A DNA stretch of 64,000 nucleotides from a virus (IMGVR_UViG_3300028883_000003:32001-96000); one strand, 5' to 3'; numbered from the stretch's first letter, positions 18,217 to 44,384 are shown. The notes: generated by a model not told the origin, from the letters alone. Numbers and translations: made by a program.

Positions 18217-18217
18217 T

Positions 18218-20879: not shown

Positions 20880-20893
20880 TTTTTACCTCTTTA

Positions 20894-21100
20894 CTATCCA
20901 TTATTTATTCTCCTTACTGCATATCTGCTAGTTACAACAGTAAACCCATCCACAAACTCTACAAGTATTGAATTCATACGACCACGAACAATAACACGAC
21001 ACGGCTGACCTTTACGCTCAGGTAATTTGCTACGCCAGAACCATATATGATCAAACTTCGCGTCAGTCATTTCTTTTTTCTTTTTAAATTGTTTGAGCAT
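20894..21100 (-). CDS. small hypothetical protein
   Basis: WFWRSKLPERKGQPCRVIVRG..NSILVEF small beta-barrel-like pattern. Confidence 0.45.
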   Translation of the reverse strand: MLKQFKKKKEMTDAKFDHIWFWRSKLPERKGQPCRVIVRGRMNSILVEFVDGFTVVTSRYAVRRINNG

Positions 21101-21250
21101 TTTGTTGAGGTCAACAAAATGGTTAGTTCTTCCTCACTTATTTTTTTCAATCGTCCATTTTTGTCGGTAGGATGTGGAATAACATCTGGCCATTCTTTAA
21201 CAATACCCGGAGCTAAACCTCTTTCTTGTGCTATATAAAAATCCATTTAG

Positions 21251-22096: not shown

Positions 22097-24215
22097 CTAA
22101 AATCCTTTTTAATGCATGAGACAACGTATATTTTTCTAAATACAGTTTTAAACCTTGTTCTGATATATATTTTCTCTTTTTATCATTTTTCAACAATTCA
22201 TTAATCTGTTCTAAACATTGTTGTTCAGTAGCAAAAAACACCATATGTTTTCCATCAGTAAACATATCTTCTAAATTGGGAACATATTGGTTTAGCCCTA
22301 CTCCGCCAACAGCCATGGCTTGCAAATAACGATCAGAAAAGTACAATGGAACATCATTAACAATGTTGGTATTCAAAATAATTTTTGCCCTATTTAAAAC
22401 TTTAACATGGTCAGCATTAAATACACCATCTTTTGCATATGGTTTAAGTTTGTCAGGCCAAGCACCATTACCAAATATTTTTATTTTTACCCCATTATCA
22501 ACCAAATACTCAAGTAATTTTAGTCTTGGTTCACTGTGTGGTGTGCCAACAAAAACTACGTCAATATCCTTTTCAATTTCAGGAATTGGTTTATATGTGT
22601 TTGGATCAGGAGCAATAATACCAAATTCACAAGGTCGTTGGGTTTGTGCAAAAACTCTAGATAAAAGCTCTGGTGCCCCGGTATGCCAAAATGATTTATG
22701 ACAAACCCTGCTTAATTCAGCAAACCACTGTTCTACTTGTCTTCGGTTATCAACATACCAACAAGCCAATTTAATCTTAGGCATAAGTTGGTTAATACTA
22801 TTTAAAACTTGAGGATGAATATTTTGTCCACCACATATCAAAACCATCTCCGGTTCATTGTGTAGGGTGTCATTAACCAATTTATAAGTAGCTTCAATTG
22901 GGTTGTTGTTGCACTTCTTCAAAGTAACACGATAGTCATGAGTTAAGACTTTGTATCCAAAATCCTTTTCTAATGTTCTTTTTATAAAGTGTTCATTTCT
23001 AAATGCTCCTAATGGGCCACTACTATCAAAAGAACCCACTAAAAGAATTCTTTTCTTTTTAGGGTTTTTGTCAGCAAAGAAAATTTCGTTGTAAACTTCC
23101 TGTGCTGTATGATAGGCCATACATTCGCAGTTATTAAATTTTTCTGTATATTGGCAAGGAGAACATGGCATTCTTTTGTTTAAAATGGTGACATCTTTAC
23201 CTAATGGTAAATTCTTTGCAACCATCGTCGGAGCAAAAATAGCATAAGTTTTAGCTCCTACTGAAGACGCGATATGCGTGGGGCCAGTATCATTGCCAAT
23301 ATACATTTTGCAATTTTGTAAAACAGTAGCTAATTGAGGAATAGAAAGTTTACCCATTAAACCAAGCTCAACATTAGGTGGCCATTCCTTTTCTTTAGCT
23401 TCTTTATAATCTTCTTCATCTCCAATCATCACTATTTTGTAATGGGAGAATTTCTTGTTAATCAACTCTGCCAACTCAACGTAGTGTGGCCAACGCTTAA
23501 CATCCCACGTTCCATTACCAAGACGCAAAGCAGTATCACCAAACACAATGTAAGGAGCATATTTAGCTTTATCAACATTGCCCATCTCTTGAATTGGTCT
23601 TTTGTACAAGTCAAGTTTCTCCATTAGAAGCTGGAGCTTATCTAATTCTTCATCCTTAGCTGTTTCACAATGAGTAGGTGGTAAATCTCCACTGCAATCA
23701 AGAAAATCATTAATACCCATATGCTGTAAAGACTCATGAAACATTTTAAACTCAGCTGTAATAATAGCTTTTGAATATTGAGTTAACAATTGACCATATT
23801 GGTTTAAAGTGTTAGCACTCCAAATAGTGGCATAGACTAAATCATAATGTTTGTAATCAAAATCAGTTATTACATTGTCAACGCATTCCCAACCACGGAT
23901 TACGCTCGCCGCCGGTTCTTTACACCAAACTGTGATCTTAAGCAACGGATGTTCATGTTTCAAACTACGGATGGCAGGAGTAAGCATAACCATGTTACCA
24001 ATGCCTTCTTCCATAATTATTAACAGCGAACTAACTTTAGTATTTTGGTACAAAGAATATAAATTCTGACTAAGCATGTTAGCCAAATTAATACCTTGAG
24101 ATTCTAATTCATGTCTTTTCTCAGGAGAAATCGACAGATATTGTTTTAACAAATCTCCGGTCAGCTTGTCAACTTGTTCTTTTACTGCAAAAGATAATTT
24201 TATTTGTTTTCCCAT
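22089..24215 (-). CDS. GT9 (heptosyltransferase-like) fused to a CgeB/Glyco_trans_1_2-type glycosyltransferase
   Basis: GIGNMVMLTPAIRSLK, KRWPHY, GNDTGPTHIA (GT9); DVVFVGT, KIFGNGAW, AKIILN, SDRYLQAMAVGG (CgeB-like). Confidence 0.85.
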   Translation of the reverse strand: MGKQIKLSFAVKEQVDKLTGDLLKQYLSISPEKRHELESQGINLANMLSQNLYSLYQNTKVSSLLIIMEEGIGNMVMLTPAIRSLKHEHPLLKITVWCKEPAASVIRGWECVDNVITDFDYKHYDLVYATIWSANTLNQYGQLLTQYSKAIITAEFKMFHESLQHMGINDFLDCSGDLPPTHCETAKDEELDKLQLLMEKLDLYKRPIQEMGNVDKAKYAPYIVFGDTALRLGNGTWDVKRWPHYVELAELINKKFSHYKIVMIGDEEDYKEAKEKEWPPNVELGLMGKLSIPQLATVLQNCKMYIGNDTGPTHIASSVGAKTYAIFAPTMVAKNLPLGKDVTILNKRMPCSPCQYTEKFNNCECMAYHTAQEVYNEIFFADKNPKKKRILLVGSFDSSGPLGAFRNEHFIKRTLEKDFGYKVLTHDYRVTLKKCNNNPIEATYKLVNDTLHNEPEMVLICGGQNIHPQVLNSINQLMPKIKLACWYVDNRRQVEQWFAELSRVCHKSFWHTGAPELLSRVFAQTQRPCEFGIIAPDPNTYKPIPEIEKDIDVVFVGTPHSEPRLKLLEYLVDNGVKIKIFGNGAWPDKLKPYAKDGVFNADHVKVLNRAKIILNTNIVNDVPLYFSDRYLQAMAVGGVGLNQYVPNLEDMFTDGKHMVFFATEQQCLEQINELLKNDKKRKYISEQGLKLYLEKYTLSHALKRILDD

Positions 24216-29655: not shown

Positions 29656-31797
29656 GTGGCTTTATACGGGAATCGAACCAGATATAAGACTGGAAAAAAA
29701 CATAAAACTATTATTCGTTCATCCAAGCCAGTAAAAAACGTTGTTGCTGATGTAGATAAAAATATAGCTAATGCTGTAGCTATTCATACAGTTGTTAATT
29801 CGCGTACTGCTACGTCTGTTTTGACAACAGTTAATGATTATCAAAATCCTGACCTAAACAACAGAACAACAGTTGTTAATTTGTCCAGACAGTTGCGTTC
29901 TATTGAGGGCATATGTGCTTCAGTAGCAGACCTGTTGGCAGATTTTGGTGTGACCAAAGGTGCCTATTATTCTGACAGCGAAGAATTAAAACTTATGTTA
30001 AACAAGTGGGCTAATTTTGTAAATGGTCCAATTGCTTTGTCCAAACAAAAAGGAGTGGTTTTTCCTGTTCCCGGAATAAGATCATTGTCACGTAAAATTT
30101 TTGATGATTATATTACGGATGGTGATGCTGTCTTTACTTTGTTTTGGAAAAATGGTGTGAAGATGGACCCTAATGACACAGAGTCTTATTTCATACCTGT
30201 GTCCATAAAAACATTAGACACCGCTTCTTTGACAATTGATCCTGATTTAGCTAGTCTTGGTGTTGAGCGAATTGAGTTAAAATTCAGCAACGACACTTTA
30301 AAGCGTATTAAAGAACCTACTACGGATGCCGATAAGTTTTTAAGGGATAGTTTGCCTAAAGAGTGGTTAAAATTTATCAATAGTGGTGAGTCAATTATTT
30401 TGGATGCAAACGTAACTTATCATTTAAAGCGTAATGGGAAAGATTGGAAGGCATGGGGAGAGCCTTTATTCTTAAAGGCATTTAGTGCTGTTGCAGCTAA
30501 ACGAAGATTACAAGCCGTAGACGATGCAACTATTGATGGTCTTATTAATCGTTTTACTGTTTTTAAGTTAGGTCTTGAAGATAAAGATAAAAATCCGGCT
30601 TATCACATTCCTTCTAATGCTCGTACTCAAGCACTAATTGAAATTTTAACTAGTTCAAAAAGAACTAATGCTATCGTTTGGCCGGGTCCAGATTTGGATA
30701 TTATGGATATTGGTCCAGACGGTAAAATTTTGGAGTTTGACCAAAAGTATAAACAAGCTGATATTGATATCTTAAGAGCCCTGCACGTATCTCCTCTTTT
30801 GATTGATGGAGGTTCTACTGGACAATCTGCCAGAGACTGGGCTGCTTTTGTGAGTACTGAAGTTGGACTTGATGCTATTCGCAATGAATTAGAGCAGACC
30901 TTTACACAAATCGGTAAAGAAATAGCATTGGCCAATAAAATGGATTATGAGCAGCTTTATTACAAATTTGATACCCAAATGTTGAAGGATGAAAAAGCCG
31001 TAAGAGACTTTGCATTAAAAGTTTTTGAGCTTGGTGGTTTATCTGTGGAAACATTTGTTCGCACCATGGGGTATGATTTTAACACCGAGAAAACACTCAA
31101 AGAACGAGAGCAGTCAAGTGGTGTTTCTGATTTGTTTGTTAATCCTAATGTTCCGGGGTTTACTGGAAAAACACCAGATGGCGGCGATGGTCGTCCGCCG
31201 GGGAGTACTGATGACGAACCAAGGGAAGATAAAGATAAGTCTGCTGCTTCTAACCCGTTGGATAATGTTACTGTTTTTTATGGGATGTACAAACGAACAT
31301 TTGATTCTGTTATAAAAAACGTTAACTATCACTTGGCCATTAACCAAAAAAACATGGCCACTATGACTCTTATAGCAGGCTTTAACCAATTTAAACTTTT
31401 GGTTGATTCACAATTAAACAATACATTTTTGAAATATTCTGGTGGTAATGTAACGGGGTATTTGGAAAAGTTATTGCAGTGGAATGAAAATTATATTACT
31501 CGTTTTTATCAACAGGCAGCAACGGCTTTAGAAACAAGTCAAGAAGATTTCAATTTGTTGGCTAAAAAAAGCGATGAGCGTATTTTGATGTATGCACAGG
31601 AAAGTTTTAGAAAGGCCAAGTGGGTTGGTTTGATGGCATTGGCTAAACTAGAAGGCAAAACCAAAGCTATTTGGTCTTGTGATAACCCGCAAAATATAAC
31701 ATGTGTTGAAAACAATGGAAAATCTTTTGATTTGGATATTTTGGTTGGCATGTTTCCAAGTCATCCTAATTGCAAGTGCACATTGGAGTTTATGTAA
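29656..31797 (+). CDS. portal protein with C-terminal gpF/SPP1 gp7-like head morphogenesis domain
   Basis: Follows TerL; portal-like helical body; G/P/D-rich linker; C-terminal C...HPNCKC motif. Confidence 0.7.
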   Translation: MALYGNRTRYKTGKKHKTIIRSSKPVKNVVADVDKNIANAVAIHTVVNSRTATSVLTTVNDYQNPDLNNRTTVVNLSRQLRSIEGICASVADLLADFGVTKGAYYSDSEELKLMLNKWANFVNGPIALSKQKGVVFPVPGIRSLSRKIFDDYITDGDAVFTLFWKNGVKMDPNDTESYFIPVSIKTLDTASLTIDPDLASLGVERIELKFSNDTLKRIKEPTTDADKFLRDSLPKEWLKFINSGESIILDANVTYHLKRNGKDWKAWGEPLFLKAFSAVAAKRRLQAVDDATIDGLINRFTVFKLGLEDKDKNPAYHIPSNARTQALIEILTSSKRTNAIVWPGPDLDIMDIGPDGKILEFDQKYKQADIDILRALHVSPLLIDGGSTGQSARDWAAFVSTEVGLDAIRNELEQTFTQIGKEIALANKMDYEQLYYKFDTQMLKDEKAVRDFALKVFELGGLSVETFVRTMGYDFNTEKTLKEREQSSGVSDLFVNPNVPGFTGKTPDGGDGRPPGSTDDEPREDKDKSAASNPLDNVTVFYGMYKRTFDSVIKNVNYHLAINQKNMATMTLIAGFNQFKLLVDSQLNNTFLKYSGGNVTGYLEKLLQWNENYITRFYQQAATALETSQEDFNLLAKKSDERILMYAQESFRKAKWVGLMALAKLEGKTKAIWSCDNPQNITCVENNGKSFDLDILVGMFPSHPNCKCTLEFM

Positions 31798-32195
31798 TGG
31801 AATTAGATCATACTAAAAGAGAGCAAGCAATACAGGAGTTAGAAAATATCAGTTTTGTTCGAGAGTCTGGCCAATACCAGATGTCCACTGGACATATTAT
31901 AACTAGGCTTTTACCAAATCTTTTAACATCCTCTTATTGCCAAATATTTGAATCAGTTTACAATGAGTATAGTAATAAACCGAATGGAATGCCTGTTCAT
32001 ACTCATTCAGAATCGCGTGAAGTATTTTATCAATTAAAAGGGCAATCTAATTTTTCAGATGGTTCAGTTTTGAATCAGGGGGAAATAAAAATTATCGAAG
32101 CGGGGGAAGAGCACGGTGTTGTCTTAAGTGCTGGTTCAGCATTAGTAATTATAGCTCATCCACCCATTAAATCATTACCAAAAGGGAGTGACTAA
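31797..32195 (+). CDS. cupin-domain protein
   Basis: PVHTH...EVFYQLKG...G...IEAGEEH cupin motifs; start 31797 overlaps the portal stop. Confidence 0.8.
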   Translation: MELDHTKREQAIQELENISFVRESGQYQMSTGHIITRLLPNLLTSSYCQIFESVYNEYSNKPNGMPVHTHSESREVFYQLKGQSNFSDGSVLNQGEIKIIEAGEEHGVVLSAGSALVIIAHPPIKSLPKGSD

Positions 32196-32554
32196 TGGTT
32201 GATTCTCAAGTTTTACTTAAGTTTCAAGAAGACATCAATGAATTGAGATCAAAGGTACAGGCTATAGAAATTCAAGTTGCATTAATTCCGCCTGCTGAAC
32301 TGTTGCAGTTTAAGGGAAAAGTATTACAGGCTTTAAAAACAATTAATGATGATATAAAAAAAATAAGTAGTGGATATGCAGAATTATCTAAAGCACAAGT
32401 GCAGCAAGATAGTTCTTTTATAGAAAAAATTGGTAAGCTGGACACTAGAATTGTGGTGTTGACTACTAAAGTAGCAATTTATGCCACTATTTTGGCAACC
32501 ATTCTTACTGTAGTTTTTAGTTCTTTGATTCAATATATGATAGGTAAATTTTAA
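32195..32554 (+). CDS. coiled-coil protein with C-terminal TM (holin/XhlA-like)
   Basis: Coiled coil followed by a single hydrophobic helix VAIYATILATILTVVFSSLI. Confidence 0.5.
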   Translation: MVDSQVLLKFQEDINELRSKVQAIEIQVALIPPAELLQFKGKVLQALKTINDDIKKISSGYAELSKAQVQQDSSFIEKIGKLDTRIVVLTTKVAIYATILATILTVVFSSLIQYMIGKF

Positions 32555-35500
32555 ATGCACAAACTAATTGTTTTGTCAGCAATGTTTTTGGCTTTATTGT
32601 CGTTGTTTTTAGCTGTACCATCTTTGGCTACAGTAAATGTTTCGTTGACAATTAGTCAAGCAGATGCTACATATTTACGAGCCATACCAATTCAGGACTC
32701 GGCAGGTCGAGGAGTTTCTGAAAATTGGGGGTTAGCCCTAAATGCCACCAAAGATACTTTAATTTGGGTAGACTTATCTGGTGCTGCTCTTGGCTCCAGC
32801 ATTTCTGCATCAGAGTTAGCTGATGAGGATTGGGGAGATGTCTCGATTTCCTCTGGCGTGGCTAGTGTTGAAGATTTAACAATTTCTGGCGAAACCGCTG
32901 GTGATATTTTACATTTTAATGGTTCTAATTGGGTACGTTTAGCCATTGGTACTGTTGGCCAAGTGTTAACTGTCAATAGTGGAGAAACTGCTCCAGAGTG
33001 GGATGCTGCTGGTGGTGGAATTGCCGATCTTGCTACGCTATTTGCTTATTTCCATCGAGATTACTTTGATACTACTTCGGATATTGTTGGTGATTCAATT
33101 ACGGTTTTATTGGCTGACTCTGCTGGTATTTCTTTGAAGGCTGTTCAAGATGCTAGTGGCAATACAATAACAACTACTTATGCCCCAGTTGCTACTCCTA
33201 CGTTTACTACTTCAATTGGAATTGGTTCGACAACCATAACTGAAGCTGAATTGGCTGCTTTGGATAGTGTTGCCAGTGTTGACGGGTTGGCTATAACTGG
33301 TCAGACAGCTGGTGACATTCTGTGTTTCTATGGTGGAGCTTGGAATTTAGTAAATGCTGGTTCGGCTGGTCAGGTTTTGGAGATGCAAACTGGCGACACG
33401 ACTGTTGGTTGGGGGACCGATGATGGTGCTGGTGCGGCCTCAATTGAAAACGATGTATATGGTTCTGGCTGGAACGATGATATTACAAATGGTGCTTCTC
33501 AAAATGCTATTTATGATTATTTACATCAAATGGACACAGATGATGATGGTGATATTGATAATTTAGATGGTACTTTTATTGATGCTGGTGGAACTCAAGC
33601 ATTAACAGGTAGCTGGGCTGCTGGTGATTTTAATATAACAGGTTTAAATAAGGTTGAAACTGATTCTATTCAGTTTACTAGCCACATGATTGTGGGAGCA
33701 ACGGCAATTACTCCGACTGAAGTTAGCTATTTATCTGGCGTTACGTCGGCTATTCAGACTCAACTTGATGGTCAGGATGAAATCACGGAGTTAGGTTCTG
33801 GAAACTGGAAGGTTTATTACTCCAATGGTTCAGGAGCAATTATAGAATTAGCACTTGGTACTAATGGGCAGGTTTTAACTTCCAATGGTACTACATCTGC
33901 TCCCACCTTCGAAACCCCTTCTGGTTCTGGTCTTACATATTTTACCGAAGGTGATGATAACGATACTTCAACATTTACAGCCACTGCCCCGAATACTGTT
34001 ATAGGTTTTGCCAGTTCAATAACTATGCAGGGAAACTCTGTTGATGGTGCTCAGCATATTACTGCGGACACTGTTTTTGCTGATGTCTATTTATCTACGG
34101 GTGATGTGTCTGGTAGTATTACACTTGAAGGAATTACTTCGGGTGGCTTTACCTTGGGAGTTCTCGATGTTGCTGGTAGTCTTGTTGATGTGTATCTTCC
34201 TACGGTAGATGGTACTCAAAACCAATTTTTGATGTCGGATTCCGGGGCCGGTACTGATAGTTTGGTGTGGGCAACAATAGATTTTTCATTTGTTAGTGGA
34301 GAGATTGCCGATACTCAGATTGCTGATGGTGCTGTAGATGGTGGTTCAGGTGGCGAGATTGCCGATCACACAATTGATGCTAATGATATTAAGTGGACTT
34401 CCACACCGGGTTCGGGAGAAGATGATTATCTTGTTTCTTACGACTATGCCAGTGAAAGTTTTACAGCCGTCGCAGGAGGAGCGGGTGAAATTAACACAGC
34501 CTCTAACCAAGGAGCTGGTTATAAATTATATGAACAAAAAACAACTTATGATCTTGAATTCAAAACCATTACAGCGGGTACTGGCATTTCTTTAGATACG
34601 GCCACTGCTAATCAGTTAAATATTTCGATTAGTTCAATTGATTCCACTTTGTTTAACCAAACTCAAACTGATGCCTATGTGAATTTATTAGTAAATGGTT
34701 ATATTGACACTACAACTTTGGACACTATTGAATATTCCCATAAAGCAATTGCTGATGCGAGTGGTAACACGATAACAACCACTTATGCTCCTATAGATAA
34801 CCCGACGTTTACTACCGCAATTACGATAGGTTCGGCTGGTATAAGTGAAACAGAGTTGGAGATTTTGGATGGTGCCACTGTTACAACTACGGAACTTAAT
34901 GTGCTTAGTGGCATTCCCGGAACCTTGACAGTTACCGAACTTGGGTATGTTGATGGTGTTACTTCATCAATACAAAATCAGATAAATGCAATTGCTGTGT
35001 TTTGGGACACTGTTACTAATGCTAATACTTTGCAAGCTACGGGTACTACTGATTCTGCATTTTTGCGAATAATAAATGATGGTGACTCTGTTACTAGATT
35101 TAGTGCTCCTACTGGGGCTAAGTTTAGTTTTGAGGGAGACGGAATTTGGACAAATATACCATATTTAAGTTCGGATACAGTTGCTGCGGCTGTGTTTGAT
35201 ATGACTGGTGGTAAGATACTTGATGGTTCTGACGATATACAAAGTTTTTCTGCTGGGGACTTAGAGGTTTTGAGCAATTCTTTATATATAAAACAGGATG
35301 CTGTTGATACAACCGAATTAAATATGGGGCTATCTGGAATCTTTACTGGGAGTATTTTATATAGTGGTTCATTAGAAATTCCTAATAGTGACAACCCTAC
35401 TACTGATGCATCCGGCGAACTTGCAGTTGACCAAAATGCTTCTGCTCTTGAGGTTTATGACAGTACACAAACAGTTTCTGTTTTAATACCGTTGTACAAC

Positions 35501-35854
35501 CCTATTCAAGCTGCAATTGCTTCTCCTGATTTACTAGAGGATACCATTACTATTTTTCAGGTTAATTCTTTATTATATCCGTATGGTATTGGTTTGTTGC
35601 AGGCAGAATTAATTGTTAATGATACTGGAACCGCTTATTCAATTCAGCTTGAAGAATGGACAGGAAAGCAACACAGAGCAAGAGCGGGATATATAGATAC
35701 ACTAACAACAACATCTGATTCTTCTTATACGAGTTCTATTTCGTTTAATGATGGTGACTTTGCTACGGGTAACCAAATTAGAGCAATAGTGCCATCTACC
35801 GAAGTTGACGAAATATACCTTTCTTTAGTATTCTTTGTCAAAGAGGGTGATTAA
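32555..35854 (+). CDS. exported 1099-aa fibre-like protein
   Basis: Signal peptide MHKLIVLSAMFLALLSLFLAVPSLA; repeated G..GQVL...W modules, VTS[AS]IQ.Q[LI] and TEL..L motifs typical of phage fibres; duplicated DASGNTITTTYAP. Confidence 0.7.
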   Translation: MHKLIVLSAMFLALLSLFLAVPSLATVNVSLTISQADATYLRAIPIQDSAGRGVSENWGLALNATKDTLIWVDLSGAALGSSISASELADEDWGDVSISSGVASVEDLTISGETAGDILHFNGSNWVRLAIGTVGQVLTVNSGETAPEWDAAGGGIADLATLFAYFHRDYFDTTSDIVGDSITVLLADSAGISLKAVQDASGNTITTTYAPVATPTFTTSIGIGSTTITEAELAALDSVASVDGLAITGQTAGDILCFYGGAWNLVNAGSAGQVLEMQTGDTTVGWGTDDGAGAASIENDVYGSGWNDDITNGASQNAIYDYLHQMDTDDDGDIDNLDGTFIDAGGTQALTGSWAAGDFNITGLNKVETDSIQFTSHMIVGATAITPTEVSYLSGVTSAIQTQLDGQDEITELGSGNWKVYYSNGSGAIIELALGTNGQVLTSNGTTSAPTFETPSGSGLTYFTEGDDNDTSTFTATAPNTVIGFASSITMQGNSVDGAQHITADTVFADVYLSTGDVSGSITLEGITSGGFTLGVLDVAGSLVDVYLPTVDGTQNQFLMSDSGAGTDSLVWATIDFSFVSGEIADTQIADGAVDGGSGGEIADHTIDANDIKWTSTPGSGEDDYLVSYDYASESFTAVAGGAGEINTASNQGAGYKLYEQKTTYDLEFKTITAGTGISLDTATANQLNISISSIDSTLFNQTQTDAYVNLLVNGYIDTTTLDTIEYSHKAIADASGNTITTTYAPIDNPTFTTAITIGSAGISETELEILDGATVTTTELNVLSGIPGTLTVTELGYVDGVTSSIQNQINAIAVFWDTVTNANTLQATGTTDSAFLRIINDGDSVTRFSAPTGAKFSFEGDGIWTNIPYLSSDTVAAAVFDMTGGKILDGSDDIQSFSAGDLEVLSNSLYIKQDAVDTTELNMGLSGIFTGSILYSGSLEIPNSDNPTTDASGELAVDQNASALEVYDSTQTVSVLIPLYNPIQAAIASPDLLEDTITIFQVNSLLYPYGIGLLQAELIVNDTGTAYSIQLEEWTGKQHRARAGYIDTLTTTSDSSYTSSISFNDGDFATGNQIRAIVPSTEVDEIYLSLVFFVKEGD

Positions 35855-37119
35855 TGCGGTATATATTATATTTATTGTTATTGTGTTTGCTTGTACCAAC
35901 TATTGACGGTGCGGATTGGTCTTTTACTATTTCAGGGGATGATACCGCCGACGTTGACGATGCTGATTTATGGAGCACGTCATCTACGTTACTTCGTGGT
36001 GATACTTCTACAACGATGTGGGTAGGGACCAATAGTGGGGAACGTTGCGGTTGGGTTCATTTCGTAAATTTAGATGATAGTCTTGCCACATATCCGGGAG
36101 TTGTTGATTCTATCCTTTTGATTGCTGCTATTGGTGCAGGCGAGCCACTGATTGACACTACCGGGGATGACGATTCTCTCTGGTTACTTGTGTCCCCTGT
36201 CAGAAAAATCCCGGTTGAGGCAGAGGTTTCGTGGGACACTTGTAACAGCGGGGAGGAATGGACAACTGCTGGTGCTAAAGATATTTCGGATGCGTATCAG
36301 ACGGCCTTAGATACGACAGGCCCTATTGTGTTTGAAGACTATTCATCTCTTGACACTGTGCATTTATGGGTGGACCCACAAAGCTTACTGAACAGCAATA
36401 ACGGCTGGATTATTCGCCCACTTTGCGAAGGTGATGGTAATATTCAGGTGGTTTTTGCAACAAGTGAGGATGGTAATCCGGGGTTTTCTTTGGTTGTTTA
36501 CGGGCATACAGAGGCAATAGTAAGTGCAACAACAGATACAGTTTCTTATAGCTATAATGATGCTGGTTTTACAACAGTGTGGAGTACGACTGGTACGACT
36601 GGCAGGCTTGGAGAAACTGGGATGGGTGATTGGTATAAGTCCTGTATAAGGTTTACAAGTATTAATGTTGACACAAATGCCACGGTTGATTCGGCTTTTA
36701 TATATGTTACCGGTGGTGGTTTAGGGTCGGGATTTGGGAGTATATATGCCAGAATTTATGCTGTTAATGTAGGCGATGCTGATCCATTTACTACAGCGGT
36801 ATTTTATGATAGTTTGCTTACTAATCATAAAACGTCTGCATATGTTAATTGGACTACCGACTTCAATTGGTCACCGACTGGGTCAAATAAAAGTCCTGAT
36901 ATTAAAACTGTTGTACAAGAAGTATTTGATAGGCCTGATTGGGTTATGAGCAATGCTCTTGCTTTTTTGTTTGCTGCTAATGGGACTACTACTACCAACG
37001 GCGAATATGTTGTTTACAAAACTTATGATGGTAGTGCGTCAACGGCACCATCGTTAGTTTTGTACTTAACTAACCCAGTAACTGGACGTTCTACAATAAT
37101 TCGAATTAATGCGGGCTAA
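35854..37119 (+). CDS. exported protein with two DNRLRE/CBM96-like domains
   Basis: Signal peptide MRYILYLLLLCLLVPTIDG; AEVSW...WTTAG, NNGWII, ATVDSAFIY, PSLVLY patterns. Confidence 0.6.
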   Translation: MRYILYLLLLCLLVPTIDGADWSFTISGDDTADVDDADLWSTSSTLLRGDTSTTMWVGTNSGERCGWVHFVNLDDSLATYPGVVDSILLIAAIGAGEPLIDTTGDDDSLWLLVSPVRKIPVEAEVSWDTCNSGEEWTTAGAKDISDAYQTALDTTGPIVFEDYSSLDTVHLWVDPQSLLNSNNGWIIRPLCEGDGNIQVVFATSEDGNPGFSLVVYGHTEAIVSATTDTVSYSYNDAGFTTVWSTTGTTGRLGETGMGDWYKSCIRFTSINVDTNATVDSAFIYVTGGGLGSGFGSIYARIYAVNVGDADPFTTAVFYDSLLTNHKTSAYVNWTTDFNWSPTGSNKSPDIKTVVQEVFDRPDWVMSNALAFLFAANGTTTTNGEYVVYKTYDGSASTAPSLVLYLTNPVTGRSTIIRINAG

Positions 37120-37120
37120 T

Positions 37121-38581
37121 ATGAAACTTTTTTTTATTTTGTTTTTTATGCTGTTGTTTCCTTCGTTGCTATTTGCAGAAGTTGACACGGTTTATGATAC
37201 AATTTATACTTCCACAGATGACGCCCAATTTTTTACTAGTTTGGTAACGGATAGCAATTACTTACGAGCCGGTCAAGCTTCTAGCGGGTATTTTTTTAAC
37301 GCTTTGTTACGTTTTGACAATTTACCTATGAAACAAGGTGAGTATCTTGTTAGTGTTGATTTATACTTGTTTGATTTGGCGTCAGACACAACCATTGGAG
37401 AGCCAAGTTTAATAATTAAGTTAGAAGACACAGGCAATTCAACAACTTTTAGTGATTCGGCTGATTATGTTAGTAGGCATTGGACAACTGATAGTGTAAA
37501 TTGGACTGTTACAAGGCCGGAGGGGCTTTATGGTTGGGAATTTGACCCTCGTTACAACAATTATACTGCTGTAACGTCTTTAGCTCCTTTGTTTCAGACT
37601 ATTGTGGATAGAGCAGATTTTGATTCTAGTCAGGCAATAACAGTTCGAATTTTTGATAGGCCTTTATATGAGGATGCTTATACTACTTTTTATTCCTTTG
37701 ATGGTGATTCTGCAAAAGCCCCATATTTAGTTATCGTTAGGGTAATACCAAGCACTGATAGTTGTAAAACATACATATGTATGTGTGACACAACCTCAAT
37801 AAGAGACACCTATATACCAGATGGTGAAACTGTTTCTGATACAATGCGGGTTATTTTTTATGTTGCATGCACTCCCGATAGTGTGCCAAAAGTGTCAGAT
37901 TCAATTATTGCAGCAGCAGTGGACTCTCTAAATGGTAGTCGACTCTTAGGAAGAGCAAAAATTTATATAAAGTATGATATTTTACATATTTATTCTTCTT
38001 ATTTTACAAACCACGTAATAAATTCTATTGATGCTGAAGCGTTTAAGGGGCTGTATAGTGTACATTTAGATTCTGCGGCAGCTCACTATTCTGTGGATAT
38101 AAATGTTGGGGTTTACACGTTTGGTACGTACCCGTGGGACGCGGCTTCTAATCCTTACGATGGCACTTATGGAGCGTGGAACGGTGCAACCCCACAAAGA
38201 ATTTCACATGAGCTTTTGCATACGTTTGGGCTTATGCATACAAACATTGGTACTTTTAGTGAAGTGCTTGGCCCACCTATAGATGATGATTTTTTATGTG
38301 GCCCATGTTGGGAGTACCCTGTTGAGTATGGACAAAGTGATTCTGTTAGAAATGAGATTGGGGATAAATGCTCAGATACTGATCCTAGCCCAAAAGTAAC
38401 ACCGGGATTTGTGTGTGGGAGTGATGCATATGATAGTACAAAGTCTGATTCTTTGATTATGCGATCTGTACCACACTCTACGCTTGGATTGGCAATTACA
38501 GCACAACAGGCTGGTAGAGTACGATGTCATACAAGGTATTGGTTTCCGGGTTGGTATATTTTTATGGGAGAAACACAATAA
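37121..38581 (+). CDS. exported DNRLRE-like domain + metzincin (M43 pappalysin-like) zinc protease
   Basis: Signal peptide MKLFFILFFMLLFPSLLFA; HELLHTFGLMH zinc motif; GDKCSDTDP; Met-turn-like LIMRS. Confidence 0.78.
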   Translation: MKLFFILFFMLLFPSLLFAEVDTVYDTIYTSTDDAQFFTSLVTDSNYLRAGQASSGYFFNALLRFDNLPMKQGEYLVSVDLYLFDLASDTTIGEPSLIIKLEDTGNSTTFSDSADYVSRHWTTDSVNWTVTRPEGLYGWEFDPRYNNYTAVTSLAPLFQTIVDRADFDSSQAITVRIFDRPLYEDAYTTFYSFDGDSAKAPYLVIVRVIPSTDSCKTYICMCDTTSIRDTYIPDGETVSDTMRVIFYVACTPDSVPKVSDSIIAAAVDSLNGSRLLGRAKIYIKYDILHIYSSYFTNHVINSIDAEAFKGLYSVHLDSAAAHYSVDINVGVYTFGTYPWDAASNPYDGTYGAWNGATPQRISHELLHTFGLMHTNIGTFSEVLGPPIDDDFLCGPCWEYPVEYGQSDSVRNEIGDKCSDTDPSPKVTPGFVCGSDAYDSTKSDSLIMRSVPHSTLGLAITAQQAGRVRCHTRYWFPGWYIFMGETQ

Positions 38582-38582
38582 A

Positions 38583-39362
38583 ATGAACAAAAGCTTTTTT
38601 GTGTGTTTATTGTTTTTTTTGATAATTTTTACAGAATTTTCACTTGGTTATGATTCTGCAATAGTTTCGGTTAGTAACGACGTGTCTTTAATGGCCAGAG
38701 CCGATGCTAATTATACATTCGGTTTGGGGTCTGTATTAAACGTTTATGAAGATGGTATAGGTGCTAATAGAATGACATCTTTAATAAATATTAATCCAGA
38801 TTCAATACCTAGTGGTGTTATTCGTCAAGTCAAATTATTTTTGTATAGTTCTACAAATCAGTTAACAACTTTGTACCCAAGGCTTGATAGTGTAACTGTG
38901 GAGGCCCATCGAGTAAAAGAGAATTGGGATTATTATGACACGATTGGCACACTTGCTTCAGGATATAATTTTTCTCCTAGTTGGCATTATAGAGACACGA
39001 CTGATATCACAGACACTTTTCCCGTATTGGGTGGAACTCCTTGGTCTGACACCGCTGCTTTTTACCCAACGTCTTCGTATATATTACCAGAAGGCTCAGT
39101 AGTGGTGGATTCTTCTTCTGACGCAGAATTTGAACTTACATTGTCCCCTCATACAATGACATATTATAGAGATAATCCAGATTTTTGTAATGGGTGGGTA
39201 CTTACAGCACAGAGCACAGGTAACCAAGGGGAACATTGGAAGAGGCAGTTTTATAGCTCTAAATCGCAAGAACCCTCTAAGCAACCTTATTATTTAATTG
39301 TATATGATGGGTCTGCCCCAAAATTCAAAAATGTTGATGTGTCAGGGGACATAGAATTTTAA
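38583..39362 (+). CDS. exported DNRLRE-like protein
   Basis: Start reset to MNKSFFVCLLFFLIIFTEFSLG; VKLFLY, AHRVKENW, W...GG..W, NGWVL, FYSSK...QPYYLIVY. Confidence 0.65.
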   Translation: MNKSFFVCLLFFLIIFTEFSLGYDSAIVSVSNDVSLMARADANYTFGLGSVLNVYEDGIGANRMTSLININPDSIPSGVIRQVKLFLYSSTNQLTTLYPRLDSVTVEAHRVKENWDYYDTIGTLASGYNFSPSWHYRDTTDITDTFPVLGGTPWSDTAAFYPTSSYILPEGSVVVDSSSDAEFELTLSPHTMTYYRDNPDFCNGWVLTAQSTGNQGEHWKRQFYSSKSQEPSKQPYYLIVYDGSAPKFKNVDVSGDIEF

Positions 39363-39393
39363 TATGGCGTACAATTTTAATGGAGTAGAATAA

Positions 39394-41262
39394 ATGAATA
39401 GGTTAGTTTTTGTTTTAGTTTTTGTTTTGTTGTTGTGTGTGAGTCCAGTTGTGGCAAGGAATTTAGTGACACTTACTTCTGGCGATTTACCATACAGTGC
39501 CAGTTCTAACGATAGTATTCAGATTGATGGCAATCACATCACATCCAATGGCACAGCCATAAACGTGGAGAGTGTGAATAATGTTTATTTTGATTTTGGC
39601 ACAGACACACTTGAGTACGGGGCTAATGGTGGCAATAACGAATATGGGTTGCGTTTTCAAAACGCCTATAACTGTACTGTTAATGGTGGTACGATTATGC
39701 GTGCCGTTGGACCGGCTTCGACAGACGGTGAGAGTAATCACACTATTTATATGCACGGAACTTGTTATGGGCTAACCTTCAACGACGTAGACCTTATCAC
39801 CGACGGATACAACGGACACTGCGTTCTTGGTTATGGTCCTCACTATTCAATAAATTTTGATGGTGGAACATGGCGAAGTGATTCTAGAAGTTTTTCCGAT
39901 AGACATAATTATACCGGGGCTGTTGCATGGTTGGGAACACCCGGTAGCGGAGGTGATTACGCATATTGGATTCATGGTGTTTCTATTGTCGATGGACCAG
40001 CACAGGGAATAATAACCATAAGTGGCCGCACCATTATTGATAGCTGTGATATTAGCACCGATCATATAAATACTGGACCAACCGGCTCCGACGGGAACCA
40101 ATATCTTATTCTATTAACTGGTTGTACCAACCCAACATCCGTCACTAATTGTACACTTGTCAGCGGCAGTGATAGGGGAGGGAGTCGGGGAGTTCTTATA
40201 GAAAATTCAAACGGTACAGCAGATGAAAGAATAGTAGTACGTAACAATTATTTTGACATACACAACGGTCCTGACAGCGAAGGGGGGATGGGTGTTTATG
40301 GTTCGTGTAGAATAATTAGATTGCGGACGCTTCATTCCGGTTCTCAAAGATGGTCGAGTTATATAGATATTCGTAAAAATACTGTATATGGGACATCAGA
40401 TTTTAATGAGAGCACAACACATATAGGCCGAGAGGTGATTGGCATTGACTGTAACATGGCGTCTCAAGGATTAGGTGGGGCACACCATATTAGGGTTGAT
40501 AGCAATAAGGTTTATATGAGAACTTTAGGGACCAATGTGTATAACAAGGCAGCCGCTCTATACTCATATGTTAATCCCGATACAACGGGGATGTCTTGTT
40601 CTTACAATGAGTTTTATGGTTCAGATGTTGTTGTCCGACTTGCTGATGGGGGGGAAGATGGTAACTCTGGCAACGGGATTGGCTGTACTGAATTTTTTAT
40701 GCATAACAATATTTTAGGTTTTCTTGATACAACGGGCAATGACTCCCTTACGTATGACACTGGATACACTACGTGGAGTGTTGCCGTTGGTAACGGTGAC
40801 GCGACCCCAATTGCTGTCGACAACGTATCACGGGACGCAACATATCTCAATGGAGCATCTGACACTGATATTTTATTTAGGGTTGCCCCCGGCCCCACCG
40901 ATATAGCTATGCAAAAGACCGTTGGTGTCTATGTTAAAGATTCCGATGCTGACCCTATTGTTGGAGCTACTGTTCGGCTTATAGATGACGGCGGTTCTGT
41001 GGTTTGGAGTAATATAACCGACGTAAACGGCTACGTGGCTGAGGCTGCTACTTATTTATATGATTCCGTTGGTACTTCGGTTGATAGTAATTACAACCCC
41101 TTTACACTTAGGGCGATCTACGGCACCGACTCCACTGATGTTTCCCGTATTGTGGCATGTAATAATGGGGATACAACAGTAGTATTGGATATTGAAGGGG
41201 AGCCAAATATTGTTCCAGTTAATATTTCAGGTAAAGTGGTAATTAAAGGAAAGAAAAAATGA
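39394..41262 (+). CDS. exported right-handed beta-helix (pectin lyase-like) protein with C-terminal carboxypeptidase-regulatory-like Ig domain
   Basis: Signal peptide MNRLVFVLVFVLLLCVSPVVA; Asn/Gly ladder repeats (VRNNYF, IRKNTV, VDSNKV, MHNNIL); VKDSDADPIVGATVRL...TDVNG. Confidence 0.65.
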   Translation: MNRLVFVLVFVLLLCVSPVVARNLVTLTSGDLPYSASSNDSIQIDGNHITSNGTAINVESVNNVYFDFGTDTLEYGANGGNNEYGLRFQNAYNCTVNGGTIMRAVGPASTDGESNHTIYMHGTCYGLTFNDVDLITDGYNGHCVLGYGPHYSINFDGGTWRSDSRSFSDRHNYTGAVAWLGTPGSGGDYAYWIHGVSIVDGPAQGIITISGRTIIDSCDISTDHINTGPTGSDGNQYLILLTGCTNPTSVTNCTLVSGSDRGGSRGVLIENSNGTADERIVVRNNYFDIHNGPDSEGGMGVYGSCRIIRLRTLHSGSQRWSSYIDIRKNTVYGTSDFNESTTHIGREVIGIDCNMASQGLGGAHHIRVDSNKVYMRTLGTNVYNKAAALYSYVNPDTTGMSCSYNEFYGSDVVVRLADGGEDGNSGNGIGCTEFFMHNNILGFLDTTGNDSLTYDTGYTTWSVAVGNGDATPIAVDNVSRDATYLNGASDTDILFRVAPGPTDIAMQKTVGVYVKDSDADPIVGATVRLIDDGGSVVWSNITDVNGYVAEAATYLYDSVGTSVDSNYNPFTLRAIYGTDSTDVSRIVACNNGDTTVVLDIEGEPNIVPVNISGKVVIKGKKK

Positions 41263-41276
41263 AAGAAAGAACACTA

Positions 41277-41858
41277 ATGAAAACATTATTTATCTTTTTG
41301 TGTTTGTCACTTTTACCAGTTATGCTAAATGCTGATGCCACATATAGTTATGGTGGTGTTTTTTATTACAATGGCAATCTGACTACGCCAGATTCTTTGC
41401 ATGTGTATGTGTCTTATCAGCCGTCTGGAGATACTGTCAGTTATGTATCCCTTCCTGATTCGGCAGTATGGGATACAACTATAGATACAACTGATGTTAC
41501 TGACAATTATGCAATATTAAGTTACCATATATATTTTGGGACTAATTTGTTAATTACTCAAGAAACTATTAATTTACGATTAGATACAAGTAGTATTTCT
41601 CCACAAGTATACGCAATGACAGGTGATTCTGTAAAGACAGCGATAGAAGCACAAGGTAGTCAATTATGGGGCTTATCAGTTTTTTGGGGTACGTTGGATA
41701 GTTCACTTATGCTGATGTACCCACTTGATGGTACTACCCCAAAGGACAGTGTTCAAATTACAGACAGTTCTGGTACAGTTTTGATGTCTATAATTTATAA
41801 GCACAGTAATACAAATACAGTATTAGACTCAACTATTGTTTATCATAGGGTTCCATAA
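41277..41858 (+). CDS. exported D-S/T-rich hypothetical protein
   Basis: Signal peptide MKTLFIFLCLSLLPVMLNA; 8 sequons by hand count. Confidence 0.6.
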   Translation: MKTLFIFLCLSLLPVMLNADATYSYGGVFYYNGNLTTPDSLHVYVSYQPSGDTVSYVSLPDSAVWDTTIDTTDVTDNYAILSYHIYFGTNLLITQETINLRLDTSSISPQVYAMTGDSVKTAIEAQGSQLWGLSVFWGTLDSSLMLMYPLDGTTPKDSVQITDSSGTVLMSIIYKHSNTNTVLDSTIVYHRVP

Positions 41859-42070: not shown

Positions 42071-42487
42071 ATGTCCTCATCTGTTCAATATTTGGATGAA
42101 GATAATAGTTACAAATTTGTTTTTTCTTTAACAAATTCAGAAACTGGTGCTAAAATTGCATTGGCTTCCATCTCTTCGGTGCAGTGTACTGAATTTTATT
42201 ATAATCCTAATTTGTTGACTAGTGACAGAAATCACTTGGCTACAATAAACAGTAGATATAACCAAAACGTAAAGAATGCCAATGATGTAACTATAACTTC
42301 TTCTGGCACAATAAGTTGGGTGGTTCAACCTGAAGATACTGTGTTCCTTAATTCTTCAAATGCCAATGCCGAAGAGGAATTACATATTGCTCTTTTTATG
42401 TGGACCTATGGAACTGGTGGAAGCAAACAAAACTCACATACATTTTTTAATTATGTTCGCCATGTACCTTATATTTCGAGTATGTAA
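42071..42487 (+). CDS. beta-sandwich protein, possibly BppU-N/adaptor-like
   Basis: AGGAG RBS; GTISWVVQPEDT...HIALFMWTY pattern; no signal peptide. Confidence 0.4.
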   Translation: MSSSVQYLDEDNSYKFVFSLTNSETGAKIALASISSVQCTEFYYNPNLLTSDRNHLATINSRYNQNVKNANDVTITSSGTISWVVQPEDTVFLNSSNANAEEELHIALFMWTYGTGGSKQNSHTFFNYVRHVPYISSM

Positions 42488-42906
42488 TGTTTAAATTTGG
42501 CAAAAATTCTGAAAAAAAATTAGAAAAAGTTCACTTTTTACTACAAAAAGTTTTGAAAAGGGCGATAATAAGTACAAGAGTGGATTTTTCTATTGTGTCT
42601 GGATATAGGGATAAGGAGATGCAAGATTCTTTATTTCGAAGTGGGCACAGTAAATTACGATGGCCAAATAGTAAGCATAATTCTGACCCATCATTAGCCG
42701 TTGACATAGCGGTTTATAGAAATGGTAAGTTGGATTGGCAGGACTTAAATAGCTATTATTATTTGGCCGGGTTAATTCAAGCTATCGCCGATAGTATGAA
42801 TATTACTTTGAGATTTGGGTTGGATTGGGATAGAGATGGTGATTTTAATGACCAAACTTTTTTAGATGCGGGGCATATAGAGTTAGTTAATGAGGACACA
42901 GAATGA
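42487..42906 (+). CDS. M15-family peptidoglycan endopeptidase (endolysin)
   Basis: SGYRDKEMQ, SKHN..PSLAVDI, DWD.DG, DAGHIEL (L-Ala-D-Glu peptidase pattern). Confidence 0.88.
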   Translation: MFKFGKNSEKKLEKVHFLLQKVLKRAIISTRVDFSIVSGYRDKEMQDSLFRSGHSKLRWPNSKHNSDPSLAVDIAVYRNGKLDWQDLNSYYYLAGLIQAIADSMNITLRFGLDWDRDGDFNDQTFLDAGHIELVNEDTE

Positions 42907-44384
42907 AATTAAAAGGTAAACGGCGTAAATTTGTAATGACGGCTATTTCGGGTAATGAGGAAAAATGGGTTAAACAGTGGGCTGAATCTGTAATGAAGGC
43001 AAATCCAGATTTAGTTATTATTAATCTGACCCAGTATGACGACAATTCAGAGGAACTATTTAGAAAACATATACCAGAAGATAAATTAAAGCTGGTTAAA
43101 TATCCTTGGAAAAAAGACTTTAGCGAAGCTAGAAACCATACTCTGGACTTAGTTCCAGATGATACAGACATGGTAATGTTTTTGGATTTAGACGAAGTAT
43201 TTACTCCAGAGTCTTACTCCGCTTTGGAAGAAGTTTTACATAATACTGAGTTAGATATCCAAATAATGACAACTATTTATAATAAAGTGAGCAAGGAGTC
43301 AATGCTTGCTAGTCTTTATTACCCTAGGTTGTTTCCGTGGCGTAATCGTAAGGGTGAGTTACTTCACCCTCATTTTGAAAGTGAAGTACACAATCAATTA
43401 GTGTACCCATCTGGCGTCAAACAGGAGGCGATACGTAGCAAAATTGGAATTTTTCATTATGGCTACGCATTGGACGCCAAAGCTATGGCGGCTAAGCATA
43501 AGCGTTCGGAAGAGCTTATACGACAACAACTTAGCAAAAATCCCGATGACTACTTCGGTCATTTAAACTTGGCTCAATTATTGCGGGCTAAGGGGGATGC
43601 TAAAGGAACAGCTAAACACGCTCAAAAAGTTGTTGATTTGGTAAGTCCAAAGGTTAATTCTGGTGACCCAAGAATGCTTCATGCCTATTTAATGGCCAAA
43701 GAACAATTGGCTACTGCTTATTTGGTTTTAAAGAGATTTCAGGAAGTTATCAAAGTTTCTGAGGAAGCTCTGGAGAAAAAGCCGGATTACTTAGACGCAC
43801 AGATGAATTTAGCTAATGCTTATTTGGAACTAAGAGATTTAGATAAAGCAGAATTTTGGTTAAAGAGATATTTGTTTGTGCGTAGTCAGTATGATGAATT
43901 AAGGGATAATACTAACCTAATCTTAAATCATCTTAATTCAACTTTTATGGCTTTATATCATTTGGGCTCTATTGAAATAGCCAGAGGAAATATAGACAAG
44001 GCTAAAGATTACTTTGAAAGAAGCTATAAGGCTGAGCCAAAGTTTGCAGATGTATTTATCAGATATCTTGATTGTGTGCGTAGATTAACTAATAAAATAG
44101 ATTCTGAATTAGTTAATAAATATATTGTTGAAAATTCTGATAAAGCTCATATGCTATATGAGTATTTTGGTGATTTAGAATTAGAGCGTTCAAATATTGA
44201 AAATGCAAAGTTTAATTATTACCAAGCGTATTATTTAAACGAAAAAAGTGAAGAGCACGGTAGAATAGAGAGTAAATGGAAATCCATAGAGGATGCCTTT
44301 GGTGGTGTTTCACAGATATTTTTTAATTCTGCTGGTAAACACCAAGAGTTAAAACAACGATTAGGAGACAAAAATGGTTCCTGA
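42903..44384 (+). CDS. GT2 glycosyltransferase with TPR repeats
   Basis: NEEKW, DDNS, WKKDFSEARN, FLDLDE, FE..VHNQ, HYGY, followed by TPRs. Confidence 0.88.
   Translation: MKLKGKRRKFVMTAISGNEEKWVKQWAESVMKANPDLVIINLTQYDDNSEELFRKHIPEDKLKLVKYPWKKDFSEARNHTLDLVPDDTDMVMFLDLDEVFTPESYSALEEVLHNTELDIQIMTTIYNKVSKESMLASLYYPRLFPWRNRKGELLHPHFESEVHNQLVYPSGVKQEAIRSKIGIFHYGYALDAKAMAAKHKRSEELIRQQLSKNPDDYFGHLNLAQLLRAKGDAKGTAKHAQKVVDLVSPKVNSGDPRMLHAYLMAKEQLATAYLVLKRFQEVIKVSEEALEKKPDYLDAQMNLANAYLELRDLDKAEFWLKRYLFVRSQYDELRDNTNLILNHLNSTFMALYHLGSIEIARGNIDKAKDYFERSYKAEPKFADVFIRYLDCVRRLTNKIDSELVNKYIVENSDKAHMLYEYFGDLELERSNIENAKFNYYQAYYLNEKSEEHGRIESKWKSIEDAFGGVSQIFFNSAGKHQELKQRLGDKNGS

Follow-up and report, generated by a model that had tools for sequence, protein, structure and literature searches.

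A conserved late-operon cassette of six leader-bearing phage proteins, a candidate exported and glycosylated kit for binding and cutting the host surface

We analysed a 64,000-nucleotide stretch of viral DNA (IMGVR_UViG_3300028883_000003:32001-96000, hereafter the window), which spans bases 32001-96000 of an IMG/VR virus record that is complete, 118,180 bp long and bounded by direct terminal repeats. Coordinates below are window positions unless a contig is named. Between the portal and endolysin genes of this phage lie six consecutive genes, here termed P1 to P6 (32555-41858, + strand), each of which encodes a protein with a Sec-type leader and an excess of an O-glycosylation sequon. We propose that the six products are an exported, glycosylated binding-and-cutting kit, of which at least the fibre set docks on virions at lysis. 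We give this reading a probability of roughly 45%.

Results

Six consecutive late genes encode proteins with Sec-type leaders

The cassette consists of P1 (32555-35854, 1099 aa), P2 (35854-37119, 421 aa), P3 (37121-38581, 486 aa, with an alternative start at 37109), P4 (38583-39362, 259 aa), P5 (39394-41262, 622 aa) and P6 (41277-41858, 193 aa, with an alternative start at 41259), all on the + strand. The original prediction, made by reading the window alone, had placed six signal-peptide genes in this order between the portal gene and the genes downstream; their coordinates were confirmed, and so was their translational coupling or close spacing, the reading frames being adjacent or overlapping by 1 base apart from two gaps of 31 nt and 14 nt.

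By inspection, each of the six N-termini starts with K/R, continues with 14-24 uncharged, mostly L/F/I/V residues and ends in a small -3/-1 site, so that 6/6 have the features of a Sec/signal peptidase I (SPase I)-type leader. The predicted cleavage sites, from P1 to P6, are SLA↓T, IDG↓A, LFA↓E, SLG↓Y, VVA↓R and LNA↓D. The P4 leader is the least canonical, with Glu at -5, and P2 has Ile at -3. Neither a lipobox Cys ([LVI][ASTVI][GAS]C) nor a twin-Arg (RR) is present in any of the six N-termini. In a rule-based leader test, five cassette proteins passed, versus 0/43 of the other open reading frames (ORFs) of ≥190 aa in the 118-kb genome; P4 was outside the ORF set of this test owing to an overlap filter, and its leader was judged by eye.

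The acidic, S/T/D-rich composition ascribed to these proteins at the outset also held: net charge ranges from -11 to -118, and D/S/T make up 8.6/9.8/10.8% of residues versus 5.5/6.8/6.2% elsewhere, while Lys accounts for 1.8% versus 8.3% elsewhere. The GC content of the cassette (39.5-40.6%, versus 35-37% in the flanks) is higher because of this Lys-poor composition. Searches of P1-P6 against Pfam, PHROGs and NCBIfam yielded no significant family. Leader-like N-termini were also seen in two more small proteins, encoded at 1152-1568 (+, 138 aa) and 6195-6755 (-, 186 aa), and lipoprotein-like N-termini occur in several tiny ORFs in other parts of the genome.

A periplasmic O-glycosylation sequon is enriched and conserved in the cassette

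In Bacteroidota, O-glycosylation takes place at the sequon D-(S/T)-(A/I/L/V/M/T), only on non-cytoplasmic proteins, and Glu is not tolerated in place of Asp (PMC12871550). We counted 69 such sequons in P1-P6 versus 23.0 ± 4.4 expected from composition-preserving shuffles (z 10.5), and the excess is present in each of the six proteins individually. For seven control motifs (E/N/G-[ST]-hydrophobic, the reversed motif, D-[ST]-non-hydrophobic, D-[AG]-hydrophobic and N-x-S/T), the corresponding ratios in P1-P6 are 0.69-1.14. The other 103 phage proteins hold 90 sequons versus 75.7 expected, and the large tail proteins are flat.

The same excess was found in the orthologs from a relative, L006 (z 11.7), in a P1-like protein of a second relative, L003 (z 5.4), and in five leader proteins of the unrelated contig L008 (z 7.8); it was not seen in a further contig, L009, or in non-leader proteins. 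Moreover, pairwise alignments of P2-P6 with their orthologs show that sequon positions are kept in 37/46 cases (80%), versus 17/47 (36%) for control tripeptides. Such enrichment and positional conservation would be difficult to account for if the sites were not used, and their use would require passage through the periplasm. Export of P1-P6 is thus well supported by their sequences, and so is their O-glycosylation, which we infer from the sites. Together, the leaders and the sequon excess make it very likely that these proteins mature outside the cytoplasm, unlike the known parts of tailed phages.

The original prediction had proposed export followed by maturation in the periplasm, and had guessed at glycosylation. 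Its export part is strengthened by the conserved leaders, by the leaders of all P5 homologs described below, and by the enrichment and conservation of the sequon; the same enriched, position-conserved sequon supports the guess of glycosylation. Periplasmic maturation as such stays a step of the model set out in the Discussion.

The cassette lies in a variable slot of related phages

One relative, represented by the Logan contigs L006 and L007, has the whole block in the same order, with identities of 55% for P2, 48-51% for P3, 53% for P4, 37% for P5 and 90% for P6, and of 65%, 70% and 58% for the next three products, P7, P8 and the endolysin. Every ortholog visible in L006/L007, including the P3 ortholog P0002, has a leader, whose sequence has drifted and whose n-h-c shape is kept, with a cleavage site that is if anything more canonical (AFA↓E, ATA↓Y in P4 and GFA↓D among them). 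L003 has a portal 56% identical to that of the window, a cupin gene, a 118-aa membrane protein orthologous to, and at the same place as, the 119-aa protein that precedes P1, and then the P1-like protein with its leader.

A second subgroup of relatives has other proteins in the same slot: two leader-bearing proteins in L002 and two 1046-aa proteins without a leader in L001. The slot is therefore a variable cargo site in which the leader is not universal. On the question, raised by the original prediction, of whether homologues lack signal peptides, the relatives divide: the leaderless proteins of L001, one of them homologous to a leader-bearing protein of L002, speak in part against that prediction, and the L006/L007 and L003 orthologs keep their leaders. 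One 1046-aa protein of L001 (L001:17373-20513) is built of ~40 tandem repeats of ~20 residues with the core SQ(L/F)(I/V)WN(V/L)K.

Runs of leader-bearing proteins recur in other phages

Runs of leader proteins are also present in phages outside this group. In L008 (~35 kb), the P1 homolog P0007 is one of five leader proteins encoded in a row, and the genes that follow directly are those for an Amidase_2 endolysin and a holin-like protein. L009, an SU10-like phage, encodes P0003 and another leader protein shortly downstream of its capsid gene, and in L010 the P5 homolog P0061 is part of a run of four leader proteins. PHROGs and Pfam searches with the leader proteins of these three contigs were uninformative.

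Among cultured phages, Cellulophaga baltica phages phi18:3 (gp085-087, KC821620) and phi46:3 (gp079-083, KC821622) have 3-5 consecutive large Sec-leader proteins among their late genes, followed closely by small membrane proteins and the endolysin. This leader block is common to 34 phage records from several phage genera and one host genus, and its RefSeq names include pectate lyase, tail fiber and virion structural protein. The leaders of phi18:3 gp085-087 end in S/A↓Q, and the three proteins are annotated in GenBank as 'structural protein, experimental MS/MS proteomics', that is, from tandem mass spectrometry. The earlier statement that no described example was known thus has to be amended, since KC821620 annotates three consecutive leader-bearing proteins as structural; a literature search found no paper discussing leader-bearing virion proteins or the phi18:3 leaders.

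P1 resembles a tail fibre and is predicted to form a trimer

In P1, the leader is followed by a mosaic of tail-fibre modules, comprising three GQVL..W modules and two DASGNTITTTYAP modules, and by a conserved C-terminal domain of ~275 aa; the protein has 22 sequons. The modules are common to proteins carrying PF18454, PF12789, PF13884 and PF03906 (Mtd_N, PTR, Peptidase_S74 and T7 tail-fibre domains), the shared stretches being short (3-25% of the query). Those canonical fibres are without a leader, and the four closest matches of P1 (P0003, P0004, P0005 and P0007) have one. P1 itself had no direct Pfam or PHROG match and found nothing in a PDB sequence search. Its leader and post-leader N-domain are conserved in L003, and its C-domain matches the C-terminus of the leader-bearing fibre P0007 (i-E 1.7e-24).

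As a monomer, the last 300 aa of P1 gave a poor AlphaFold2 (AF2) model, with a predicted local distance difference test score (pLDDT) of 42. Three copies gave an intertwined trimer in three agreeing runs, with pLDDT 83-84 and an ipSAE of 0.87 (best control 0.00); the ipSAE mark is reached by 20/30 solved pairs and 1/23 single chains, a calibration from which the P1 run differs in its 3-row alignment and three copies. These models predict a homotrimeric C-terminus for P1. We also considered P1 as an exported decoy copy of the real tail fibre, and rejected this idea because P1 has no paralog in the genome. Searches of a cultured phage collection, by blastn with the terminase-portal region and by tblastn with P1, found no relatives.

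P2, P3 and P4 add CBM96-like and protease modules, and P6 a domain of unknown fold

P2 has a leader and two beta-sandwich domains, and all 10 of its sequons are conserved in the ortholog. Its C-terminal half is paralogous to the N-domain of P3, which is CBM96/DNRLRE-like, and its neighbours in the ESM Atlas are viral proteins of ~200 aa, some with CBM96, and include CBM96 clusters. P3, with 9 Cys, consists of a leader, the CBM96/DNRLRE-like domain (~residues 20-215) and an M43 metzincin domain (~215-480) of the pappalysin/ulilysin type, in which the zinc site HELLHTFGLMH follows the HExxHxxGxxH pattern and a GD.C.DT.P motif also aligns. In an exhaustive search, the C-domain of P3 matched proteins passing Pfam PF05572 (Peptidase_M43) with E 1e-10 to 1e-11; P3 itself had no direct Pfam match at E ≤0.1, and a PDB sequence search returned nothing.

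P4 is made up of a leader and a domain resembling the DNRLRE/CBM96 family (NF033679/PF24517). It matches NCBIfam NF033679 with E 1.5e-4 and 21.9 bits over profile positions 8-160 of 164, below the cut-off of 34, and P3 reaches 14.7 bits, also below the cut-off, with near full coverage of the profile. A leaderless CBM96-like homolog of 196 aa is encoded directly after a tail-fibre gene, beside baseplate genes. P6 has a leader and a domain of unknown fold, and its 8 sequons (4.1 per 100 aa) are the highest density of the six; it has no family or ESM Atlas match and no detectable relatives beyond its ortholog. That ortholog (L006:6257-6838) is 90% identical to P6 where its neighbours are 37-56% identical to theirs, which may reflect strong constraint or a recent exchange. 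Together with P1 and P5, these proteins hold all the modules first proposed for the cassette, namely fibre modules, DNRLRE-like domains, a metzincin and a beta-helix.

P5 is related to a cellular family of secreted beta-helix enzymes

P5 consists of a leader, a right-handed parallel beta-helix and a C-terminal beta-sandwich, and has 12 Cys. Its AF2 model (pLDDT 82; predicted template modelling score, pTM, 0.83) matches the folds of the Sf6, Det7 and CBA120 tailspikes, AlgE4, RbmB and PL6 lyases, with Z 25-29 and rmsd 2.6-3.7 over 315-376 residues. In this model the leader is followed immediately by the helix, from residue 23 on, which would leave no room for a head-binding domain.

The leader, followed by the same mature N-terminus, is found in 12/12 P5 homologs, cellular ones included. 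The cellular homologs, some of them from Zixibacteria, are ~1020 aa long and 44-47% identical to P5, and add fn3 and a sorting domain of the type IX secretion system (T9SS) type; one of them, P0063 (46% identical), is encoded in an exopolysaccharide/capsule biosynthesis locus. The best explanation is that P5, as modelled, would be a polysaccharide depolymerase acquired from a family of host enzymes that are secreted and associated with exopolysaccharide. The T9SS sorting domain itself (TIGR04183/PF18962) had no match in P1-P6 in Pfam or NCBIfam. T9SS secretion of P1-P6 was accordingly rejected, as none of them has the sorting domain, and they should therefore stay in the periplasm until lysis.

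Genomic setting of the cassette

The gene order on the + strand is large terminase (27835), portal (29656-31797), a 141-aa cupin-like protein, a 119-aa membrane-helix protein, P1-P6, P7, P8, endolysin, a GT2 glycosyltransferase with TPR repeats (GT2-TPR), a 612-aa protein of unknown family, capsid-region genes and tail genes. The portal named in the original prediction at 29656 was verified by phrog_2739, while the prohead protease that it placed at 44374 has no PHROG or meaningful Pfam match. At its C-terminal end the portal carries FPGHPNC.C, unchanged in three relatives, which would fit the idea of a gpF/gp7-like fusion.

The 119-aa protein (32195-32554, +), directly upstream of P1, has a coiled-coil N-part and a single C-terminal transmembrane helix; family searches gave no match, and judging from its sequence it could act like a holin or serve as a membrane platform. 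A small single-pass membrane protein just upstream of the first leader gene is found in three unrelated phages (window 32195-32554; L010:6504-6758; L016:4672-4884, which is phi18:3 gp084), a recurrence that may be due to chance. On the other side, P7 (41858-42061, +, 67 aa) and P8 (42071-42487, +, 138 aa) have no leader and form the conserved right flank of the slot; P8 is found in L001 too, immediately ahead of the endolysin (E 3e-40). The endolysin (42487-42906, +; phrog_465, E 5e-40) overlaps the GT2-TPR gene (42903-44384, +), which has the same place in L001 and L006. In L006 an HNH endonuclease gene (L006:7899-8630), absent from the window, stands between these two.

After the capsid-region genes come those for the tape measure (1599 aa) and for tail proteins of 1356 aa and 1816 aa, all on the + strand. 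PHROGs and Pfam were uninformative on the tail-tip proteins, and PDB sequence searches with the 1356-aa and 1816-aa proteins gave no match. A scan of promoters and terminators gave counts equal to those of shuffles. Seven tRNA genes (Gln, Ala, Glu, Thr, Gly, Pro and Ile-tat) lie at 412-4714. A sugar-pathway cluster on the - strand (13037-24215) encodes an HldE-like kinase/nucleotidyltransferase (PfkB and CTP_transf_like), an NAD epimerase, a UDP-galactopyranose-mutase-like flavoprotein, a GT1, methyltransferases and a 708-aa GT9 heptosyltransferase fused to a GT1-like domain. Some GT9 enzymes heptosylate beta-helix autotransporters; a link of this cluster to the S/T-rich exported proteins is speculative. 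In a search of sequencing runs, a marine-sediment metagenome, possibly the source sample, was the only run containing the stretch, and no RNA run was listed.

Discussion

A model for periplasmic maturation and docking at lysis

In the model we propose, the six genes form a conserved late-operon cassette whose products would be made with cleavable Sec leaders. The proteins would cross the inner membrane of a host from the FCB (Fibrobacteres-Chlorobi-Bacteroidetes) group, fold in the periplasm, where P3 and P5 are the Cys-rich members, and be O-glycosylated there on the D-(S/T)-(A/I/L/V/M/T) sequons. The resulting kit for binding and cutting the host surface would comprise P1 as a trimeric fibre, P2-P4 as CBM96/DNRLRE lectin-like proteins, P3 with an M43 protease in addition, P5 as a beta-helix polysaccharide depolymerase, and P6 as a small, highly conserved glycoprotein. 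Having no T9SS sorting domain, the kit would be retained until lysis. Once the membrane is permeabilised, P1, perhaps with P2-P4 and P6, would meet the cytoplasmically built particles and dock on them as host-recognition appendages, and P5 and P3 would ride along or act free. A mixed outcome, with the fibre set on the virion and the enzymes free, is plausible.

Evidence for and against docking

Docking is favoured by the fibre nature of P1, by the CBM96-like genes beside tail-fibre genes, by the variable slot and by the phi18:3 proteomics; the hypervariability of the slot among relatives is like that of receptor-binding loci. Several observations weigh against it. No docking partner or virion-binding domain was identified. 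The cassette, P1 included, sits between portal and endolysin in the head module, away from tail and baseplate genes and ~17 kb upstream of the tail-tip genes, and receptor binding could already be the task of the 1356-aa and 1816-aa tail proteins. P5 corresponds to the cellular enzyme without its fn3 and sorting domains, with the mature N-terminus conserved, which fits a free enzyme better. One leaderless L001 protein is homologous (E 1e-22) to a leader-bearing beta-helix protein of L002. The Cellulophaga precedent is itself limited: its leader proteins have no sequence similarity to P1-P6 (phmmer, E ≤10), so that the likeness is one of architecture and position only, phi46:3 (L013) gp079-083 contain 3 sequons versus 15.6 expected, an apparent avoidance, and the MS/MS detection in phi18:3 may reflect co-purification. 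Finally, two features of the phage are at odds with a host in which the sequon system is established. Gln at +1 occurs in 0/6 cassette proteins (the residues are T, A, E, Y, R and D) and in none of the L006 orthologs, and a Shine-Dalgarno motif precedes 51% of genes versus 8% of control sites; neither is typical of Bacteroidia.

These last two features bear on the host. The rule of Gln at +1 (Q-rule) applies in Bacteroidetes and does not extend to related phyla (PMC5837995). Both the sequon and the T9SS-type domains found in cellular P5 homologs point to the FCB group. These sorting domains are Bacteroidota-like and speak for a Bacteroidota host; the Shine-Dalgarno motifs and the named homologs, which are from Zixibacteria, speak against one. 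Since +1 Gln is absent and Shine-Dalgarno sites are used, the host is likely to lie outside classical Bacteroidia; taken with the sequon, it is probably a member of the FCB group near them. Of two scans of genome contigs for P5 relatives, the first found nothing and the second found only sorting-domain matches in Bacteroidota metagenome-assembled genomes, so that the host was not identified in this way. The Zixibacteria P5 homologs P0068 and P0070 have a sequon excess of their own (z 4.2 and 2.7), a hint that the code may extend beyond Bacteroidota.

Alternative explanations

In a rival reading, the proteins are exported and glycosylated and never become part of the virion. They would then be free enzymes and adhesins that loosen the envelope, the capsule or the sediment biofilm matrix for progeny escape, and may also destroy receptors on debris, alongside the adjacent lysis genes. 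We consider this a real possibility, if a somewhat less than probable one. It agrees with P5 being a host-type secreted beta-helix whose fold is like those of RbmB and PL6 and whose 46% identical cellular homolog lies in an exopolysaccharide/capsule locus, with P3 being a secreted-type M43 protease with a carbohydrate-binding domain, and with the lack of visible docking domains. The cassette is flanked by a small membrane protein and the endolysin, and leader cassettes abut lysis genes in L008, L010 and phi18:3 as well; a leader in L002 and none in the homologous L001 protein is easy to explain if only release at lysis matters. However, P1, a 1099-aa mosaic of fibre modules that is predicted to be trimeric and has no enzymatic domain, is hard to see as a lysis helper, the slot varies like receptor-binding loci, the analogous Cellulophaga proteins are in virions according to MS/MS, and CBM96-like homologs are found beside tail-fibre genes.

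Two further explanations would change the place of action. Leader-bearing genes in late operons are classically morons, such as lambda lom and bor, and the cassette might be a moron-like or host-conversion cassette that decorates or remodels the surface of the infected or lysogenic cell, for superinfection exclusion or with PblA/PblB-like adhesins, and has no part in how particles function or are released. The GC content above that of the flanks and the host-derived family of P5 would suit this idea, but the former is explained by the Lys-poor composition, and the tight coupling to structural genes, the equal counts of promoters and terminators in real and shuffled DNA, and the conservation of the whole block in a relative at 37-90% identity with conserved sequons all argue otherwise. 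In addition, the proteins have neither a T9SS sorting domain nor a lipobox to reach the surface, and P1 has no tail-module paralog to mimic, so that we regard this explanation as unlikely. It is more improbable still, to the point of being a marginal concern, that the N-terminal segments are membrane anchors or gene-calling artefacts and the proteins cytoplasmic or located in the inner membrane. The Glu in the c-region of P4 and the Ile at -3 in P2 could be read in this way. Against them stand the short n-h-c segments with -3/-1 sites in all six proteins and their more canonical counterparts in the orthologs, the enriched and conserved periplasm-specific sequon, which a cytoplasmic location does not explain, and the cellular P5 homologs, which are secreted T9SS cargo.

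Implications

Textbook tailed-phage assembly is entirely cytoplasmic. Generalising from docking at lysis, we suggest, tentatively and at a little below even odds, that some tailed phages of FCB-group bacteria build part of the virion outside the cytoplasm, with fibres, lectins and depolymerases undergoing Sec export, oxidative folding, O-glycosylation by the general system of the host and docking on finished particles when the holin opens the inner membrane. If so, the released virion would carry host-type glycans on its receptor-binding apparatus, and a new maturation route would exist for phage proteins of host recognition or release. Such a route would also explain why predictors of structural proteins miss these proteins, and leader plus sequon excess would be a signature by which uncultured phages could be assigned to hosts with this glycosylation system. 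The P5, P3 and CBM96 set would offer glycan-active enzymes that target surface polymers of sediment bacteria not yet in culture.

Comparison with known systems

Phage fibres, depolymerases and leader-bearing morons are known; in the literature searched, a conserved, sequon-rich, Sec-dependent late-operon block is not described. The Cellulophaga leader proteins come closest in layout, yet they obey the Q-rule, whereas P1-P6 have no +1 Gln and a threefold sequon enrichment. Their presence in virions is annotated from MS/MS, whereas that of P1-P6 is a proposal.

The sequon of P1-P6 is exactly that of general O-glycosylation in Bacteroidota (PMC12871550), and its Glu variant, E[ST][AILVMT], is not enriched in them. 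That system is described for cellular proteins, whereas P1-P6 are phage proteins from a host without the Q-rule and with Shine-Dalgarno sites. Matrix enzymes of exopolysaccharide loci, such as Vibrio RbmB and alginate lyases and epimerases, share both the beta-helix and secretion with P5, and P0063 lies in such a locus; the phage protein differs in being without fn3 and T9SS sorting domains and in its place in a phage late operon.

Tailspikes and depolymerases (Sf6, HK620, Det7 and the CBA120 tailspike proteins) have the same right-handed beta-helix as P5 (Z 25-29). The known tailspikes, however, are cytoplasmic and leaderless and have an N-terminal particle-binding domain, whereas P5 has a leader and no such domain and is closest to cellular secreted enzymes. 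PblA and PblB of the Streptococcus mitis phage SM1 are likewise fibre-like phage proteins acting outside the cytoplasm; they lack a leader, depend on holin and lysin for their release and afterwards attach to the cell wall, in a monoderm host. Lastly, in combining a fibre with several glycan-binding and glycan-cutting modules, the cassette resembles the branched receptor-binding complexes of other phages.

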